A model generated the notes under the pieces. It was given only the letters and a program-made list of their open reading frames with translations. It was not told the DNA's origin and did not search any database. Shown in pieces: positions 22,481 to 28,354 of a stretch of DNA of 32,000 nt. Both the position numbers and the translations under genes were made by a program. Within the stretch, counting starts at the first letter, position 1, and the number at the start of each line of letters is the position of its first letter. Location: positions 2,550,001 through 2,582,000 of the forward strand of contig NC_014033.1 in assembly GCF_000025925.1 (NCBI RefSeq). Direction: 5' to 3'. Source of the DNA: Xylanibacter ruminicola 23. GTDB taxonomy: Bacteria; Bacteroidota; Bacteroidia; Bacteroidales; Bacteroidaceae.

Positions 22481-22672
22481 TTATTCCTCGTTAGCGCGAA
22501 GCTGCTGAACATATACAGCGTGCTCCATCTTAAGGCGCTTCAGTACAGATGGCTTGTCAAACTGCTGACGACGACGCAGCTCCTTTACAACACCTGTCTT
22601 CTCGAACTTTCTCTTGAACTTCTTGAGAGCCTTCTCAATGTTCTCGCCTTCCTTTACTGGTACAATAATCAT
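22481..22672 (-). CDS. rpsU: 30S ribosomal protein S21
   Basis: 63 aa, MIIVPVKEGENIEKALKKFKRKFEKTGVVKELRRRQQFDKPSV is canonical S21. Confidence 0.96.
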   Translation of the reverse strand: MIIVPVKEGENIEKALKKFKRKFEKTGVVKELRRRQQFDKPSVLKRLKMEHAVYVQQLRANEE

Positions 22673-22829: not shown

Positions 22830-24980
22830 CTAGCATTTCTGCCAGAGGTTGGTGTCAATCTTCACAATTTTGCCTTCTTTAACCCAACGGTAAATGATGG
22901 TCTTTACCACACCCGATTCACCATTTGCCAAACGGAGATTCACCAGATCTTCCTTTGAGAACTCCTTAGGCAGAGCATCCAGGTAGCGAATATTACCCTT
23001 TGAGACCTGAGCACTGATGGTGCCATCGCGCAAAGCATCAATCTTATTGCCATAAATCATCAACTGATAATGGAAACAACGCTCAGCATACCAGATGGCA
23101 AACTTAATGGCTCGCTCAGTTTCCTGCCTGCCTTCGAGCAGATAGGCGATGATGCCGGCACGGAAACCATTGAGTGCAGCACGACGACGAAGCACATCGA
23201 TAGAATATCGTAGTGTCTGCAGATACTCCTGACGCTTGCCTTCGTCCCACTCTTCGATGGCCTGATTGATAAGAGGCAAATCCACCTCACCCTCCTCGTC
23301 CATCAAGCATAGGCACTGGCGCTTCACTTTTTCCTCCTCTTCCTTGGTCCACGTCTTAAACTTAGGCATCTTGGCACCTACCATGTCAGGCAGAAGTACA
23401 GGCGTTACTCGGCTAACCAGACCACTCTCGGCATCGGCAAAGAAAGCACGGCACTTATTAGGTGTACCACACATCACCATATTATAATAGAGGGTGACCT
23501 TACCTGAGAACGAATCCTTTGAAATGCGGTGCTGTCCCCAAGGTTTGTTGTCGTAAGCCAATCGAAACAGGTCGTTCTTCTCTGTCCACGCACCTCCCTT
23601 GTTATTCTTCAGAACAGTCTCAATCTCAGGGGCATAGGTAAACAGATGCTTTCCCTTGGCATAGAGAGCTCGCTCTAGGAATGCCGACACACCGATGTTA
23701 GGTTCGATGATACGAATCTGACTGCAGGGATTCTCTACCTCTTCGCCGTTTTTCTTGGCCAGCGAATACTCGATTTCCTTCTGCCACTCCACCTCATCCT
23801 GCTTGATGATGGGATCCATCAGCAGTTCGTACTCAGTATCCACGAACGACTTACCCGTGGCCTGAGGCGCCTCGATATCCACTATAAAACTAGGCGAATT
23901 CAGTTTGCCGTCGCGATATTTGGCCCTGACACTTGTGGCCAATGTGCCAAGCATAGGCATGGCGGCCATCAGGGTAGCCTCGCGGAATTCTTCAGGAGCA
24001 TGATCGGAAAGGTCCTGAAGTATGCCAGGCAATTCCTTATCAACAGGTGCCACAAAAGCTTCGTCGTCACCATCCTGACCAGCTTCAGCTACTGCTCCCA
24101 AGGTGGACAGCACATCCTTCATAATCGAAGGCATATCCGAGGGACGGGTACTGCCCACAGCGCTTTTGATGGTAGAAATCGTCTCATGGTCCGACAGTCC
24201 CCAATGAGGAAGGATTGAGAAAAGCTTCTGCTCGTCGAAATCGCAGATAAAACGCATATAGCGACTCATCGTGTAAAGCGCCATATTACGCTCACCTTCG
24301 GCAGGAGCATCGCCATATCCCAACTTCAGGAGCAATCCCGATACGATGTTCTCATAAGGAATACCCTTGTAGTTCATTGAACATTCAGCATTAACCATTG
24401 AACATTCCTGTTCAGCCGATTTAGCTATCCGGTTGTTCTGAGAGGAATAAGAGGCTTTCTGCTCCTCGGTAAGAGGCTCGAACACCGCAGGATCGAGAAA
24501 CCTCACATACTGCTCACTAACCATAAAACAGCATCGGGCCAGGTCGGTAACATGCGAATCGTAACTTACCCCAAGTCGGGCAGCCAGTTTCTGGATATCC
24601 TCCTCGATGGTAGCCCCAGGTGTACGCCAAGCCCAGATGTGGGTACCACCTCCGGCACTCTCGGCAAAATACGCTATACGGCATTCGTCGATGAGGTTCT
24701 CCGTCCAAACCTTACCCCAGAGTTCCTCAGTTAGTCCCTTCTCATCGATGTCGAGGAAGAAAAGTCCCGAAGGTACAGCATCTTCAGCTTTACGGGTTCC
24801 GTTGGTAAAACACTCTGCAAGAGGCAGCCATACAGGCAGTTCCTTCTTGCGACTCAAATTCTTGTTCTGCTTCACGTCGGCGAGGATTTCCTCTACGTGA
24901 TTCTCCGCCAGCAGCTGACGGTAAGCAGCCATGCTCGCCTTGCGAGGCTTGCCGCTAAAAGATGATGCCATTTGTATCAT
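22830..24980 (-). CDS. Primase-helicase: AEP-type primase (BT4734/VirE-N-like) + PriCT-like + DUF3987-type P-loop domain
   Basis: 716 aa. N-terminal AEP-like motifs: DxD in GLFFLDIDEKG, sGxGxH-like ESAGGGTHIWAW, then DSHVTDLARCCFM. A middle GERNMALYTMSRYMRF resembles primase C-terminal (PriCT) domains. Walker-A-like EAPQATGKSF sits in the C-terminal half. A C-terminal wHTH-like tail follows. Family names are recalled from motifs and not searched. Confidence 0.75.
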   Translation of the reverse strand: MIQMASSFSGKPRKASMAAYRQLLAENHVEEILADVKQNKNLSRKKELPVWLPLAECFTNGTRKAEDAVPSGLFFLDIDEKGLTEELWGKVWTENLIDECRIAYFAESAGGGTHIWAWRTPGATIEEDIQKLAARLGVSYDSHVTDLARCCFMVSEQYVRFLDPAVFEPLTEEQKASYSSQNNRIAKSAEQECSMVNAECSMNYKGIPYENIVSGLLLKLGYGDAPAEGERNMALYTMSRYMRFICDFDEQKLFSILPHWGLSDHETISTIKSAVGSTRPSDMPSIMKDVLSTLGAVAEAGQDGDDEAFVAPVDKELPGILQDLSDHAPEEFREATLMAAMPMLGTLATSVRAKYRDGKLNSPSFIVDIEAPQATGKSFVDTEYELLMDPIIKQDEVEWQKEIEYSLAKKNGEEVENPCSQIRIIEPNIGVSAFLERALYAKGKHLFTYAPEIETVLKNNKGGAWTEKNDLFRLAYDNKPWGQHRISKDSFSGKVTLYYNMVMCGTPNKCRAFFADAESGLVSRVTPVLLPDMVGAKMPKFKTWTKEEEEKVKRQCLCLMDEEGEVDLPLINQAIEEWDEGKRQEYLQTLRYSIDVLRRRAALNGFRAGIIAYLLEGRQETERAIKFAIWYAERCFHYQLMIYGNKIDALRDGTISAQVSKGNIRYLDALPKEFSKEDLVNLRLANGESGVVKTIIYRWVKEGKIVKIDTNLWQKC

Positions 24981-25030: not shown

Positions 25031-26500
25031 CTAGCTAATAGTGCAATTATTCTTAGAGTTTGCTAACTGGTTATATTTCTGATAGATAGCACTAAAAACT
25101 TTTTTCAATTTTTCGTCTTCACTACTAAAACCTTCCTGAATATTCTTTCTGAATGTGTCAACATATCGTACCTCAGTAAGCTTTTGGGCTAAATCGCGGT
25201 CGGAATGGGCGCCAAACATTGCACTTTTTTTCATTTCTCCCACCAAATGACAGAAAAAGCGGGCAGTAAACTGATTATTATGCGGACTTTTACGAGTAAC
25301 CTTCAGGTGAGCAAATATGTTTTCATCCTCTATCAACTCCCTCCACATATTTATATAATGGGGCATCCACTTCTCGTCAAGAAGATTGGCGAGTTTATTG
25401 GCAGCATTTATCACAGCCTCGCCTATCTGCTGAACATCGGTGTTTACCAGCTGCTCTTGTCCGAACTTGGTGGTAGGATCCAGTTCGCGGGCAACTTCGC
25501 AAAGCGATGCAAGGTGGAAGATGAAATAGCGAATTTGTTCGTCGCTAAGTTGGGCCTCCTGAAAATCCCGGTCGAACGTCTCGCGATCGGCACTCCATTT
25601 GGCAAACAGTCCACCAGGTACTTGTGCCAGTTCCTGCAACTCTTTGCTGCGCTCGGCAGCCATCACTTCCATCCACGAGCAGCTATCGTTTACCACCCTG
25701 AGTGTATCACGACGTTCTTTCCAATAGGCCTCCCAGGTGTTGCTCTTTCGCACACGTGCCAATTCCTTATCAAGCAGGTTGGCCATTGCCTTGCCTTTAC
25801 TTCGGTTACTCTTCATAATGCTCACAAGCATTCCTGGCAATAGCATCAGAACCAACAGCCAAAGTATCATAACCTGCATATTGTTGGTTAAACCCGTACC
25901 TATCGAATCCATCGCTTGGTGTAATGTTTTAAAATAGGCGGTTGCCAAATCTTTATCCTGCGATGCATCTTTCTCGTTTATACTATTAACAATGGTGGCC
26001 ATCACTATCAAATCTTCTGGCTTAAGATGCTGAGCACAAACATACATAAAGTATTGCAATGGCGAACTTTCAGGCTGTGCGTTCTTAGCCTCTTGAGGTG
26101 GCATAGCAAAATACTGATTCATCATCTGCTGCGAAAGATCCACAAACGATACCGACTTATGCGCTAATGGCTCGCCCAAATAATTACTGGTAAGCGTTAT
26201 TACCGATTTGCGTAAACTGTTGTTGCACACCATCTTATCGATGCGATCCAGATACTCGGAATATAAAAATGCGCAAGGCATCTTATTCAGCTCGACCAAG
26301 GCCGTCATCGTACTCTGCATACGCATGATGGCTGCATAGACTTCAGCCTCAACACAAGTATCCATACCATCAGTCAGTTCCTGTACCAAGCACTCAAGCC
26401 GGTCGGCAGCCACCTGCCAATGACGGCACACCTGAACCGTTAATTGCTCAGTGCGCTCGTCGTCAACAATCTTTTTAATTTCTTCGGTCTTCATACTCAT
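25031..26500 (-). CDS. Hypothetical protein, all-helical with one central TM helix (orphan)
   Basis: The ORF track gives 25031..26518, but that start is a GTG inside the 32-bp palindrome. The first ATG is at 26500 (MSMKTEEIKK...). Single hydrophobic segment MQVMILWLLVLMLLPGMLVSIM near residue 215. I recognise no catalytic motif. The stop is 50 nt upstream of the primase-helicase start, so the two are probably co-transcribed. Confidence 0.65.
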   Translation of the reverse strand: MSMKTEEIKKIVDDERTEQLTVQVCRHWQVAADRLECLVQELTDGMDTCVEAEVYAAIMRMQSTMTALVELNKMPCAFLYSEYLDRIDKMVCNNSLRKSVITLTSNYLGEPLAHKSVSFVDLSQQMMNQYFAMPPQEAKNAQPESSPLQYFMYVCAQHLKPEDLIVMATIVNSINEKDASQDKDLATAYFKTLHQAMDSIGTGLTNNMQVMILWLLVLMLLPGMLVSIMKSNRSKGKAMANLLDKELARVRKSNTWEAYWKERRDTLRVVNDSCSWMEVMAAERSKELQELAQVPGGLFAKWSADRETFDRDFQEAQLSDEQIRYFIFHLASLCEVARELDPTTKFGQEQLVNTDVQQIGEAVINAANKLANLLDEKWMPHYINMWRELIEDENIFAHLKVTRKSPHNNQFTARFFCHLVGEMKKSAMFGAHSDRDLAQKLTEVRYVDTFRKNIQEGFSSEDEKLKKVFSAIYQKYNQLANSKNNCTIS

Positions 26501-26512
26501 TTCATGTTTATC

Positions 26513-26544
26513 GGTCACATGGTCACAGCTGTGACCATGTGACC
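26513..26544. repeat. Perfect 32-bp palindrome GGTCACATGGTCACAGCTGTGACCATGTGACC (copy 1)
   Basis: Verified base by base as its own reverse complement. It is built from four GGTCAC/GTGACC half-sites around a central CAGCTG and abuts the start of the orphan gene. Confidence 0.95.
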
Positions 26545-26633
26545 ATTTTATCCTTTTGATTATTTGTTTTTATTCGTAATTATCTATTTATCAACAAGTT
26601 AGTTACAACAAAACATCACATCTTCCTCACTGC

Positions 26634-26665
26634 GGTCACATGGTCACAGCTGTGACCACGTGACC
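26634..26665. repeat. 32-bp palindrome copy 2 (31/32 identical; GGTCACATGGTCACAGCTGTGACCACGTGACC)
   Basis: Same sequence as 26513-26544 except T to C at 26659. Both copies are preceded by CG and followed by ATT. The centres are 121 bp apart. Confidence 0.95.
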
Positions 26666-26688: not shown

Positions 26689-26839
26689 TGCGAATACTAA
26701 TAGATGAAGGTGCGAATATTAAGCCTAGCAAGTACAAAGCCTAAGGCTAACAGGTACAAAATGCCTGTTTAAATATCGTTTGCCTATACTCAAACGATTG
26801 TGCGCCTATACGCAAACAACCGTTCGACTATACCCAATT
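26689..26839. repeat. Iteron-like array: three families of short direct repeats, each spaced exactly 22 bp
   Basis: TGCGAATAYTAA at 26689 and 26711. CTARCARGTACAAA at 26725 and 26747. GCCTATACNCAAAC at 26782 and 26804, plus a degenerate GACTATACCCAATT at 26826. Confidence 0.85.
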
Positions 26840-26870
26840 TCAATCGCACTCCAGCACCATCGTCATCTAT

Positions 26871-27491
26871 TTATATCTCTGTATAGATGTGCTCCTTGCC
26901 ACGTGGTGTCATCAGCAGTTTAGGATTGTCACCCTTAGTCCACTCCTGCAGTTGTTTACGGGCCGAATAGATTGTGAGCCCCGTAATTTGAGCAAACATG
27001 CTGGCTGTAATATAGCCGTTACGCTGCAAACAGTCACGCATCGTCAGCTCCAGTTTATCCTTATCGGCCAGTATCTCCTTGGTGTCAGGGTTATGATAGC
27101 GGCGGAATCCGTCGAGCCACTTCATAATCTCCCTTTCCCAAAACTTGCCAGGGTTATACTCCACGCCCTCAAGCCTTACATCGCGATCTTTCACCTGGTC
27201 GGCATCAGTCAACTGTTTGGCCAGCGACAACTTTGGTGCAAACGAACCTATCGGCGTATCAATGCGATAGCCCTCGGCCAGGAATCTACCCGCCACACGC
27301 ACAAAAGCATCCATCACCCTACTCAGTTCGCCATACCGCAGGTAGTTCATCCGCTCGCAGTAGTCCTCGAGCTGCTTCATGTTCAGCTTCATTCCACTTT
27401 TGGGACGGACATATACTATGTTTTGTCCATCTTCGCCCTTTACTGGGGTTCGATGAACCTCATACCACATTCCACTTTCTTTTCTAGGCAT
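26871..27491 (-). CDS. HU-like (Bacteroidales histone-like, HU_HIG-type) DNA-binding protein with C-terminal wHTH-like region
   Basis: ORF 26871..27551 trimmed to the ATG at 27491 (MPRKESGMWYEVHRTPVKGEDGQNIVYVRPKS...), which sits 27 nt downstream of a TAnnTTTG box. The N-terminal pattern (YxVHR.PVK..DG....YVRP ... G.RIDTPIGSF) resembles the Bacteroides putative HU-type DNA-binding proteins. The C-terminus NGYITASMFAQITGLTIYSARKQLQEW looks like an HTH. Confidence 0.7.
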   Translation of the reverse strand: MPRKESGMWYEVHRTPVKGEDGQNIVYVRPKSGMKLNMKQLEDYCERMNYLRYGELSRVMDAFVRVAGRFLAEGYRIDTPIGSFAPKLSLAKQLTDADQVKDRDVRLEGVEYNPGKFWEREIMKWLDGFRRYHNPDTKEILADKDKLELTMRDCLQRNGYITASMFAQITGLTIYSARKQLQEWTKGDNPKLLMTPRGKEHIYTEI

Positions 27492-27611: not shown

Positions 27612-27917
27612 CTATGCTGCTTCGTAAAATATCTGCCCTACTCTATCGATATGGTCGCCTATTGGTGTACCTTTCTTTTTATTGTAATCAAGCAGATCGA
27701 TGGAGTACAGGAGTTCCAAATCATCAATCTCGCACAGAATGGTTAGTATCTGATTATAATCAACACCTTCGCCAATCACAGCCAGATCGATATCTGAACC
27801 TTCACGATAAGTTCCTTTCGACCGAGAGCCGAAAATCAGAACTTTCTTGATGTTCGCATGCCGACGAAACACATCTTGCAGTTCCTTAATAACAGTATCG
27901 CTTAGTCCAAATTTCAT
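27612..27917 (-). CDS. Minimal nucleotidyltransferase (MNT, HI0073-like), putative antitoxin
   Basis: 101 aa. Pol-beta-type NTase signature GSRSKGTYREGSDIDLAV (G-S-x9-11-D-x-D). Overlaps the upstream HEPN gene by 4 nt (ATGA). Confidence 0.85.
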   Translation of the reverse strand: MKFGLSDTVIKELQDVFRRHANIKKVLIFGSRSKGTYREGSDIDLAVIGEGVDYNQILTILCEIDDLELLYSIDLLDYNKKKGTPIGDHIDRVGQIFYEAA

Positions 27918-28354
27918 GCCTGTTTATAATCTTCGTTTTGTGAAAGCACGTTCAAATCTTCATCCAGTTTTTTCAGTAGCGGAGCATAGTTGCTATAAAT
28001 CAGCCTAACTATTGGCAGCACCTCTTCTTCATCGTAAACATGACTGAGCGTATTACGCGCCTTTGACATTTTACGCCAAGCATCATGATCACCGATAAGG
28101 CCATCGTCGAAAGCCATCTTTAGTGTACCATTTGGCCCCAACATAAATTCATACCCCTTATAAATCAGAATATCCTGCAACACCTTCCATGCCAATTCGA
28201 AAGTATACTCGAAGCGCTGCACCAGGCCCTCAACTTCCAACTCAGACAGGTCCTCCAAAAACCTGTCAGCCTCAGTCACCTCAACGAGTCTGCCACATGC
28301 CTTATGATAATTAGCATATCGCTGAATCCACCTTATATCTTTCTGCTCTTCCAT
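27914..28354 (-). CDS. HEPN-domain protein (nucleotidyltransferase substrate-binding, HI0074 family), putative toxin
   Basis: 146 aa, helical. R-x4-H HEPN motif in KARNTLSHVYDEE. The pattern RFEYTFELAWKVLQD is typical of the HI0074 family. Paired with an MNT gene. Confidence 0.82.
   Translation of the reverse strand: MEEQKDIRWIQRYANYHKACGRLVEVTEADRFLEDLSELEVEGLVQRFEYTFELAWKVLQDILIYKGYEFMLGPNGTLKMAFDDGLIGDHDAWRKMSKARNTLSHVYDEEEVLPIVRLIYSNYAPLLKKLDEDLNVLSQNEDYKQA

Follow-up and report, generated by a model that had tools for sequence, protein, structure and literature searches.

Paired palindromes upstream of a primase-helicase gene in rumen Prevotella as candidate initiator-binding sites

What reads a pair of long, nearly identical palindromes standing before a gene of unknown function, and to what end? 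The question is raised by a stretch of 32,000 nucleotides (nt) from Xylanibacter ruminicola 23 (NCBI RefSeq NC_014033.1, positions 2,550,001 to 2,582,000; "the window" means this whole stretch), in which two 32-base-pair (bp) palindromes and the AT-rich spacer between them lie upstream of genes for a 487-amino-acid (aa) protein and a 716-aa predicted primase-helicase. Across homologous loci, one base of the half-sites that make up the palindromes switches together with one residue, number 697, of the 716-aa protein. Based on this covariation, we consider it probable that the primase-helicase of the cassette recognizes the palindromes as its own DNA sites and that these form an origin-like region, possibly with an autoregulatory role as well. 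The features on which the argument turns are these.

26513 to 26544, no strand assigned: gene-proximal 32-bp palindrome, four GGTCAC half-sites in two tandem pairs that are inverted about CAGCTG
26634 to 26665, no strand assigned: gene-distal copy of the palindrome, with one mismatch (T to C at 26660)
26545 to 26633, no strand assigned: AT-rich spacer of 89 nt, 25.8% G+C versus 47.7% for the window
25031 to 26494, minus strand: 487-aa protein of unknown function, first gene downstream of the palindromes
22830 to 24980, minus strand: 716-aa protein, predicted primase-helicase, second gene downstream of the palindromes
22833 to 22991, minus strand: predicted C-terminal winged-helix domain of the 716-aa protein, residues 664-716, with the AlphaFold2 topology H-b-H-H-b-b
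26871 to 27491, minus strand: 206-aa HU-HIG protein (HU domain plus winged helix-turn-helix, wHTH), upstream gene of the cassette

The palindrome pair and its conservation

Read directly from the sequence, the proximal copy, GGTCACATGGTCACAGCTGTGACCATGTGACC (26513-26544), is a perfect 16+16 palindrome. The centers of the two copies lie 121 bp apart, and the register in which they form a direct repeat reaches 36 nt, CG...ATT. An earlier note on this DNA had described two 32-bp palindromes, the first perfect and the second one base off, with common CG...ATT flanks and a spacer of about 26 percent G+C; all of this is confirmed. When up to two mismatches are allowed, the 14-mer arm GGTCACATGGTCAC occurs at four sites in the 32-kb window, all of them palindrome arms, against an expectation of 0.17, and none of 100 shuffled sequences reached four occurrences. 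The GTG of the longest open reading frame (26518) does fall inside the proximal palindrome, as had been claimed. The first ATG (26500) is 12 nt from the end of that palindrome rather than the 13 nt first given, and homologues set the true start at the ATG at 26494 (MKTEE...), 18 nt away. The gene itself had been taken for an orphan, a view that does not survive: its product has at least 698 homologues of about 482-487 aa.

Is the pair peculiar to this strain? We compared forty-odd homologous loci, of which 38 come from species-representative genomes, every one of them rumen Prevotella or Prevotellaceae, the others being metagenome contigs. Tandem half-site pairs lie upstream of the 487-aa gene in at least 33 of the 38, so that homologous primase-helicase loci do carry the same dyads, and none occur elsewhere in those loci (up to 13 kb each). 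The intergenic order is shared: the HU-HIG stop codon, three 22-bp units, a semiconserved stretch, the distal palindrome followed by GCAGAG, the AT-rich spacer, the proximal palindrome, and the ATG. The centers of neighboring dyads are 121 bp apart in 22 of 40 pairs and 120-123 bp apart in 35 of 40, despite drift in the sequence of the spacer, which is AT rich in all loci. The spacer also carries a mark of its own. A TTGA-N3-TCAA dyad with at most one mismatch is found in 17 of 33 unique spacers (2.2 in shuffles), and in all 17 it lies within 1.5 nt of the spacer midpoint; in the window this central dyad is degenerate, reading TTGATAAATAG on the gene strand (26584-26594, center 26589). The central motif resembles the Escherichia coli IHF consensus in 15 of 33 spacers, compared with 4.5 in shuffles, a resemblance that we keep as a lead.

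Because the central tetranucleotide of the palindrome varies among loci (AGCT, AACT, AGTT, AATT, and others) and one arm of the distal copy usually lacks the 2-nt linker, what is conserved is the set of half-sites and not a perfect hairpin. A scan of the window, about 40 loci, and viral contigs, which did not take in the host's whole genome, found the palindromes in this intergenic region only, and not as the dispersed copies that the earlier note had considered. The palindrome pair is thus real, selected, and locus specific, neither a chance feature nor a dispersed repeat. As had been suggested, the dyads behave like sites for protein binding that are under selection and made up of several half-sites.

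Residue 697 and the half-site allele

Which protein would bind them? Each locus uses a single form of the half-site, either GGTCAC or GGTTAC; rare single stray half-sites (e.g., one GTGACC in L022) leave the allele of the locus unchanged, and a third allele, GGTAAC, is present in two metagenome contigs. We scored every column of the HU-HIG, 487-aa, and 716-aa family alignments against the half-site allele. One column of the 716-aa family splits the alleles perfectly: the 21 GGTCAC loci have Tyr there, and the 15 GGTTAC loci have Cys. No column of the HU-HIG or 487-aa alignment tracks the allele, the best ones classifying 0.79 and 0.88 of the loci, respectively. In the window, the residue is Tyr697 (codon TAC, minus strand, 22890-22892), in the middle of the third helix of the C-terminal domain, the predicted recognition helix KTIIYRWVK.

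In a prospective test, four further Cys-type proteins had usable contigs; three of these carried GGTTAC, as predicted, and one (L051) carried GGTCAC. The nonredundant totals are 21 loci with Tyr and GGTCAC, none with Tyr and GGTTAC, 19 with Cys and GGTTAC, and 1 with Cys and GGTCAC, such that the residue matches the allele in 40 of 41 loci (Fisher P = 8e-11, phylogeny ignored). Could this reflect one ancient split, inherited ever since? A tree of the 716-aa protein based on its N-terminal 640 columns requires at least eight allele changes, and the allele is scattered nearly at random on all three gene trees; the link is thus not a single inherited split. The codons at the position vary (TAC, TAT, TGC, and TGT), and either residue occurs in identical local backgrounds. 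In the wider family, the position, which precedes a conserved Arg-Trp, is highly variable, as expected of a specificity position. We infer that residue 697 and half-site base pair 4 work together, whether the link came about by repeated comutation or by selection against mismatched recombinants. A coinherited recombination block, for example, a circular permutation joining the 716-aa gene, the HU gene, and the sites, was considered and rejected, since the HU gene would lie inside the block and does not track the allele, and since the allele is scattered on all three gene trees. The distant homologues P0242, P0245, and P0249 lie on short contigs or in another context (DUF4248/DUF3127) with different repeats, and the residue-allele rule could not be extended beyond the clade.

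Because residue 697 switches together with one half-site base, the winged helix of the 716-aa protein is the likely reader, and the domain that binds is most likely this C-terminal one. The protein comprises an N-terminal primase-like domain of the archaeo-eukaryotic type (AEP), a DUF3987/MCM-like P-loop ATPase, and the predicted C-terminal winged helix. AEP motifs I (hhhDhD), II (sxH), and III (hD) are present as LDID 76-79, GTH 112-114, and YD 140-141, and so is a Walker A GKS (376-378); among 73 homologues, D79 and K377 never vary, and at least 90% keep D77, G112, and D141. Full-length homologues (E = 1e-55 to 1e-234), from a set of 1,399 full-length representatives, lie above the cutoffs of both BT4734-like_N and DUF3987. 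The AlphaFold2 model has a predicted local distance difference test score (pLDDT) of 88, and its best Foldseek matches in the PDB are MCM2-7 and archaeal MCM subunits (E = 1e-5 to 1e-3), together with AAV Rep68. The isolated C-terminal domain models at a pLDDT of 90.7, and its Foldseek neighbors are mostly winged-helix domains (MCM8 WH, DpnI, Fur, MarR, and IclR). A PDB sequence search with the 716-aa protein returned nothing, and one with the family profile returned nonsignificant primase matches only. In a phage collection, two weak matches, on unverified 4- to 5-kb scaffolds, were uninformative.

The earlier note had named two candidate binders, the primase-helicase and the HU-like/wHTH protein. 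The Tyr/Cys697 covariation makes the former the likely one. The second candidate, in which the HU-HIG protein reads the half-sites, has a predicted DNA-binding wHTH and HU fold in its favor, as well as its place as the upstream neighbor in most loci. We nevertheless judge it very unlikely. No residue in it covaries with the allele; the palindromes are kept in six loci without an HU-HIG gene within 6 kb upstream (L018-L020, L026, L029, and L034); and the three-unit array of 22-bp iterons was detected almost solely with the HU gene directly upstream, which points to the iterons as the HU-linked element.

Origin, operator, or hairpin

How might the palindromes work as sites of the primase-helicase? 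We propose that each arm, with its two tandem half-sites, would recruit the winged-helix domains of one helicase assembly and that the inverted arms would set up two such assemblies head to head, in the manner of viral origins. Together with the readily melted spacer, the paired dyads would make up an initiation region resembling an origin, with a possible bend at the central motif. Tyr and Cys would read C:G and T:A, respectively, at half-site position 4, e.g., by accommodating the thymine methyl group. In the compact loci (19, the window included), in which no TAnnTTTG promoter box lies between the HU-HIG and 487-aa genes, sites bound by the 716-aa protein could also act as an autoregulatory roadblock. 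Because these loci have no box of their own for the 487-aa and 716-aa genes and lie downstream of the HU-HIG promoter (the HU-HIG gene has its own box, TACCTTTG), the bound sites would lie in the path of transcription. The covariation in 40 of 41 loci points to clustered initiator-binding sites at a putative origin, and easily melted DNA of the kind found at origins is adjacent, in the form of the spacer. The origin role of the region is one that we infer, as the cassette has neither an integrase nor plasmid relatives.

Several points weigh against an origin read by the 716-aa protein. No integrase or other mobile-element gene is part of the cassette, whose flanks vary, and PLSDB holds no homologue of the 716-aa protein. 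The window protein itself falls under the Pfam cutoff for DUF3987 (24.5 versus 27 bits) and under that for BT4734-like_N (E = 0.0046 on an N-terminal fragment), and all of the Foldseek matches of the C-terminal domain are nonsignificant (E of at least 0.14). The linker usually missing from the distal copy is not explained by simple symmetric binding. Locus L051 (1500-1655) is the sole exception to the Tyr/Cys rule, its protein being of the Cys type and its palindromes GGTCAC. Outside the palindrome unit of 137 nt, it shares 95.7% identity with the GGTTAC locus L050; recombination, a chimeric assembly, or permissiveness of Cys may account for it. Finally, a purely regulatory role of the same protein-DNA pair would fit the covariation equally well.

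That last point leads to the strongest rival: is the region simply a transcriptional operator, at which the 716-aa protein or another factor represses or tunes the HU-HIG/487/716 operon and no replication starts? The sites do stand immediately before the genes for the likely binder; in the compact loci, with no separate box between the HU-HIG and 487-aa genes, bound sites fall within the transcribed path; and the cassette is chromosomal, integrase free, and without plasmid relatives. On the other hand, the position of the sites relative to promoter boxes varies: some 15 loci have a TAnnTTTG box 13-40 nt before the ATG, with the palindromes upstream of it, and L026 and L034 have the box upstream of both palindromes. 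Because the box, where separate, sits in one or the other of these places, a strict operator model fits poorly. A canonical promoter was looked for in the spacer, and none was found. Arrays of four or five units, rigid spacing, a centrally marked AT-rich spacer, and gene-less copies are more typical of origins and iteron arrays, and the binder would be a primase-helicase and not a dedicated regulator. We thus regard a pure operator as possible but doubtful, while a regulatory role alongside the origin role is likely. The idea that the palindromes would act as an origin, an operator, or both remains the best reading; a fixed overlap of operator and promoter is not supported, as the position of the box differs among loci.

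Could the palindromes instead act as RNA or single-strand hairpins in the HU-487 intercistronic transcript, as a terminator, processing site, or translation mask, with the allele changes being compensatory? Changes on both arms do preserve perfect complementarity, the folding stability is extreme (z = -10.5), and a T-run follows the proximal copy in L018-L020. Conservation of a stem, however, explains neither a protein residue that switches with the allele nor the use of one allele per locus and the fixed 121-bp spacing, and the conserved 2-nt asymmetry would bulge the distal stem. In the window, neither copy is followed by a U-tract in the gene orientation (GATAAAC and GCAGTGA follow instead), and where a promoter box lies downstream of the palindromes, these are outside the leader of the 487 mRNA. 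An Rfam scan with gathering and E-value thresholds gave only tRNAs and subthreshold noise from plant microRNA hairpins. The specific proposal of a stem masking the translation start fails in addition on the varying placement of the palindromes relative to promoter and ATG. We hold the hairpin explanation to be highly improbable, marginally more so than reading by the HU-HIG protein. An intrinsic terminator was rejected separately, since the window copies have no U-tract after them and the T-run is confined to some loci, L018-L020. A mobile or recombining unit, either MITE/REP-like (the earlier note had offered a 153-bp MITE-like unit) or inverted or excised by recombination between the palindromes, receives almost no credence from us, even though each palindrome is both a direct and an inverted repeat of the other and the number of units differs between loci (1, 2, 4, or 5), for a scan of the window, of related flanks totaling about 400 kb (from about 40 loci, each up to 13 kb long), and of viral contigs (0 matches) turned up no copy except in this intergenic region, and the orientation of the spacer to the genes is constant in every aligned locus (GCAGAG after the distal copy and the central motif at the same offset), with no inverted form such as a Bacteroidales-type invertible promoter segment among them.

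If the palindromes are initiator sites, what do they resemble? In P4 alpha and pRN1 ORF904, a primase and a helicase are joined to a C-terminal winged helix that serves in origin recognition (P4) or has been proposed to do so (pRN1) (PMC2777425). Similarly, the 716-aa protein of the window holds a predicted primase, helicase-type ATPase, and C-terminal winged helix in a single polypeptide. The component families differ, with a DnaG/Toprim primase and SF3 helicase in P4, Prim-Pol and SF3 in pRN1, and a BT4734-like AEP and DUF3987/MCM-like ATPase here; the 716-aa protein has no sequence similarity to solved structures. The winged helix of P4 alpha recognizes short repeated origin sites. The layout here, two 32-bp double dyads 121 bp apart, differs from the ori and crr repeats of P4 and from pRN1, and P4 and pRN1 are proven replicons where the present cassette is a candidate only.

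The combination of AEP, DUF3987, and winged helix is a described architecture of mobile-element replicases (PMC5862659), and a Bacteroidota element has been proposed to replicate by means of a BT4734-like AEP and a PriCT-DUF3987 5'-3' helicase (AgaPP/AgaPH), a distant pair for which alone activity has been demonstrated, DUF3987 proving to be a 5'-3' helicase (PMC11724360). AgaPP/AgaPH belong to the same domain families and the same phylum as the 716-aa protein and have a small C-terminal domain after the DUF3987 helicase. They are separate proteins in an integrase- and pAgo-bearing element beside a tRNA gene, whereas here the domains are fused, the partners are the 487-aa and HU-HIG proteins, there is no integrase, and a candidate DNA target is at hand, which is not known for AgaPP/AgaPH.

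As for the sites, site II of simian virus 40 (SV40) large T antigen and the papillomavirus E1 sites consist of four half-sites in two inverted pairs beside AT-rich DNA, and they direct the head-to-head assembly of two helicase hexamers and autoregulate transcription. The proteins and the folds with which they bind DNA are unrelated, the four-half-site unit here is duplicated at a fixed 121 bp, and the apparent resemblance would be one of layout only. In iteron plasmids, Rep winged-helix proteins bind iterons and, for autorepression, an inverted-repeat operator upstream of the rep gene; these Rep proteins have no primase and helicase domains, and origin function resides in the direct iterons and operator function in the inverted repeat. 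Like them, the cassette combines a winged-helix initiator (here predicted) with repeated sites, AT-rich DNA, and inverted repeats before the initiator gene, and its site/initiator specificity classes resemble incompatibility groups. It differs in that the only sites covarying with the initiator are inverted.

To take the question further, could the cassette be a chromosomal mini-replicon that has no integrase, or else an element amplifying in place, which is widespread in rumen Prevotella and comes in switchable specificity classes that act like incompatibility or immunity types? The classes would be Tyr with GGTCAC, Cys with GGTTAC, and a third with GGTAAC. We think this rather unlikely. If it were true, several cassettes or gene-less origin copies could coexist in one genome without cross talk. 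Because the cassettes often sit among defense genes, such a system might serve conflict with phages.

What, then, would be new? Initiator-binding origin or operator sites are a known kind of element; here they would most probably come with a naturally switching specificity of one residue for one base pair. The sites are the first concrete candidate DNA target for the BT4734-like AEP/DUF3987 replicases, which are abundant in Bacteroidota and for which, to our knowledge, no origin or binding site is known. Together with residue 697, they suggest a candidate recognition rule (Tyr697 with C:G, Cys with T:A) that has been switched repeatedly in nature. Replicating vectors for Prevotella are scarce, and should the sites prove to be an origin, they could seed such vectors.

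The cassette and its variants

The comparison also defines a compact, uncharacterized cassette of three genes in rumen Prevotella. Among the loci, only the genes for the HU-HIG protein, the 487-aa protein, and the 716-aa (or 727-aa) protein recur. The flanks vary and often hold restriction-modification, toxin-antitoxin, IS110, AbiEii, or PDDEXK genes; AAA_15/DUF4276 is also among the defense-type genes there. In the window, the cassette and its relevant neighbors are all on the minus strand, in the order rpoC/rpoB ... tuf, a tRNA cluster, hpf, a XerC-like gene, rpsU (22481-22672), the 716-aa gene, the 487-aa gene, the 376-bp palindrome-bearing intergenic region, the 206-aa HU-HIG gene, and an MNT/HEPN pair. 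The last, a toxin-antitoxin pair of an MNT nucleotidyltransferase and a HEPN-like protein (NTase_sub_bind) at 27612-28354 on the minus strand, lies directly upstream of the cassette and terminates in a strong hairpin and T-run. The nearest genome locus is that of Xylanibacter (Prevotella) ruminicola Ga6B6, with 99% protein identity.

The 487-aa protein matches no family in any library scanned, and PHROGs, NCBIfam, and PADLOC gave no match for any of the three cassette proteins. It has a conserved hydrophobic helix near residues 205-228 and diverges fast, with 50-75% identity where its two neighbors keep 75-100%, a pattern suggestive of diversifying selection. HU-HIG proteins form a Bacteroidota family that has been reported to be without conserved operon partners (PMC5499826); the cassette provides conserved gene linkage for one of its members. 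Directly after the stop codon of the HU-HIG gene lies a further repeat.

26775 to 26840, no strand assigned: tandem array of three 22-bp units with the core GTATAGGC on the gene strand

These units (...GTTTGCGTATAGGCGCACAATC... on the gene strand) differ very little between loci with proteins of only 75-90% identity, and three of them stand in register in 21 loci, all but one with HU-HIG directly upstream. They may be binding sites of the HU-HIG/wHTH protein or an element of the 3' untranslated region. Between the 22-bp units and the distal palindrome, short tandem repeats specific to the locus are found in L024 (-480 to -400; CTCCCTGTTTCCTTGGTTCTTT, four times), L027 (CCCTGCAAGCCTTCATGCCCAA, three times), L029, and L040.

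Gene content and order show some variants. In L052 and L053 (916-2415), the 487-aa and 716-type genes are separated by an inserted gene of the PDDEXK_4 nuclease family, which runs on the opposite strand. In L011, L012, and L038, a 716-type gene with a match that starts only at residue 62-90 is followed, after about 20 nt, by an HU-HIG gene, an arrangement that suggests tandem or permuted cassettes. The metagenome-assembled genome RUG116 contains two cassettes, one (L011) with Cys and GGTTAC and the other (L012) with His at the specificity position and no palindromes.

The palindrome region varies as well. L015, L019, and L020 carry four to five palindrome-plus-spacer units in tandem, with a period of about 122 bp, from -650 to -90 before the 487-aa gene, and a canonical TACTTTTG promoter box follows these arrays at -36. 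In L018 (-560 to -490), the distal palindrome lies about 220 nt past a tRNA gene, with no HU-HIG gene or 22-bp units between them, and may mark an insertion edge. The region of L041 (-530 to -150) is aberrant, with two direct copies of a three-half-site unit, GGTCACAGGTCACAGGTGTGACC, 46 bp apart and two copies in inverse orientation about 250 bp beyond. Last, in L045 (9700-9970) and L046 (1300-1500), a GGTAAC palindrome and 22-bp units are found with no HU-HIG, 487-aa, or 716-aa gene nearby; these are gene-less copies of the noncoding region, and the element in L045 adjoins an apparent gene for ribosomal protein S10.

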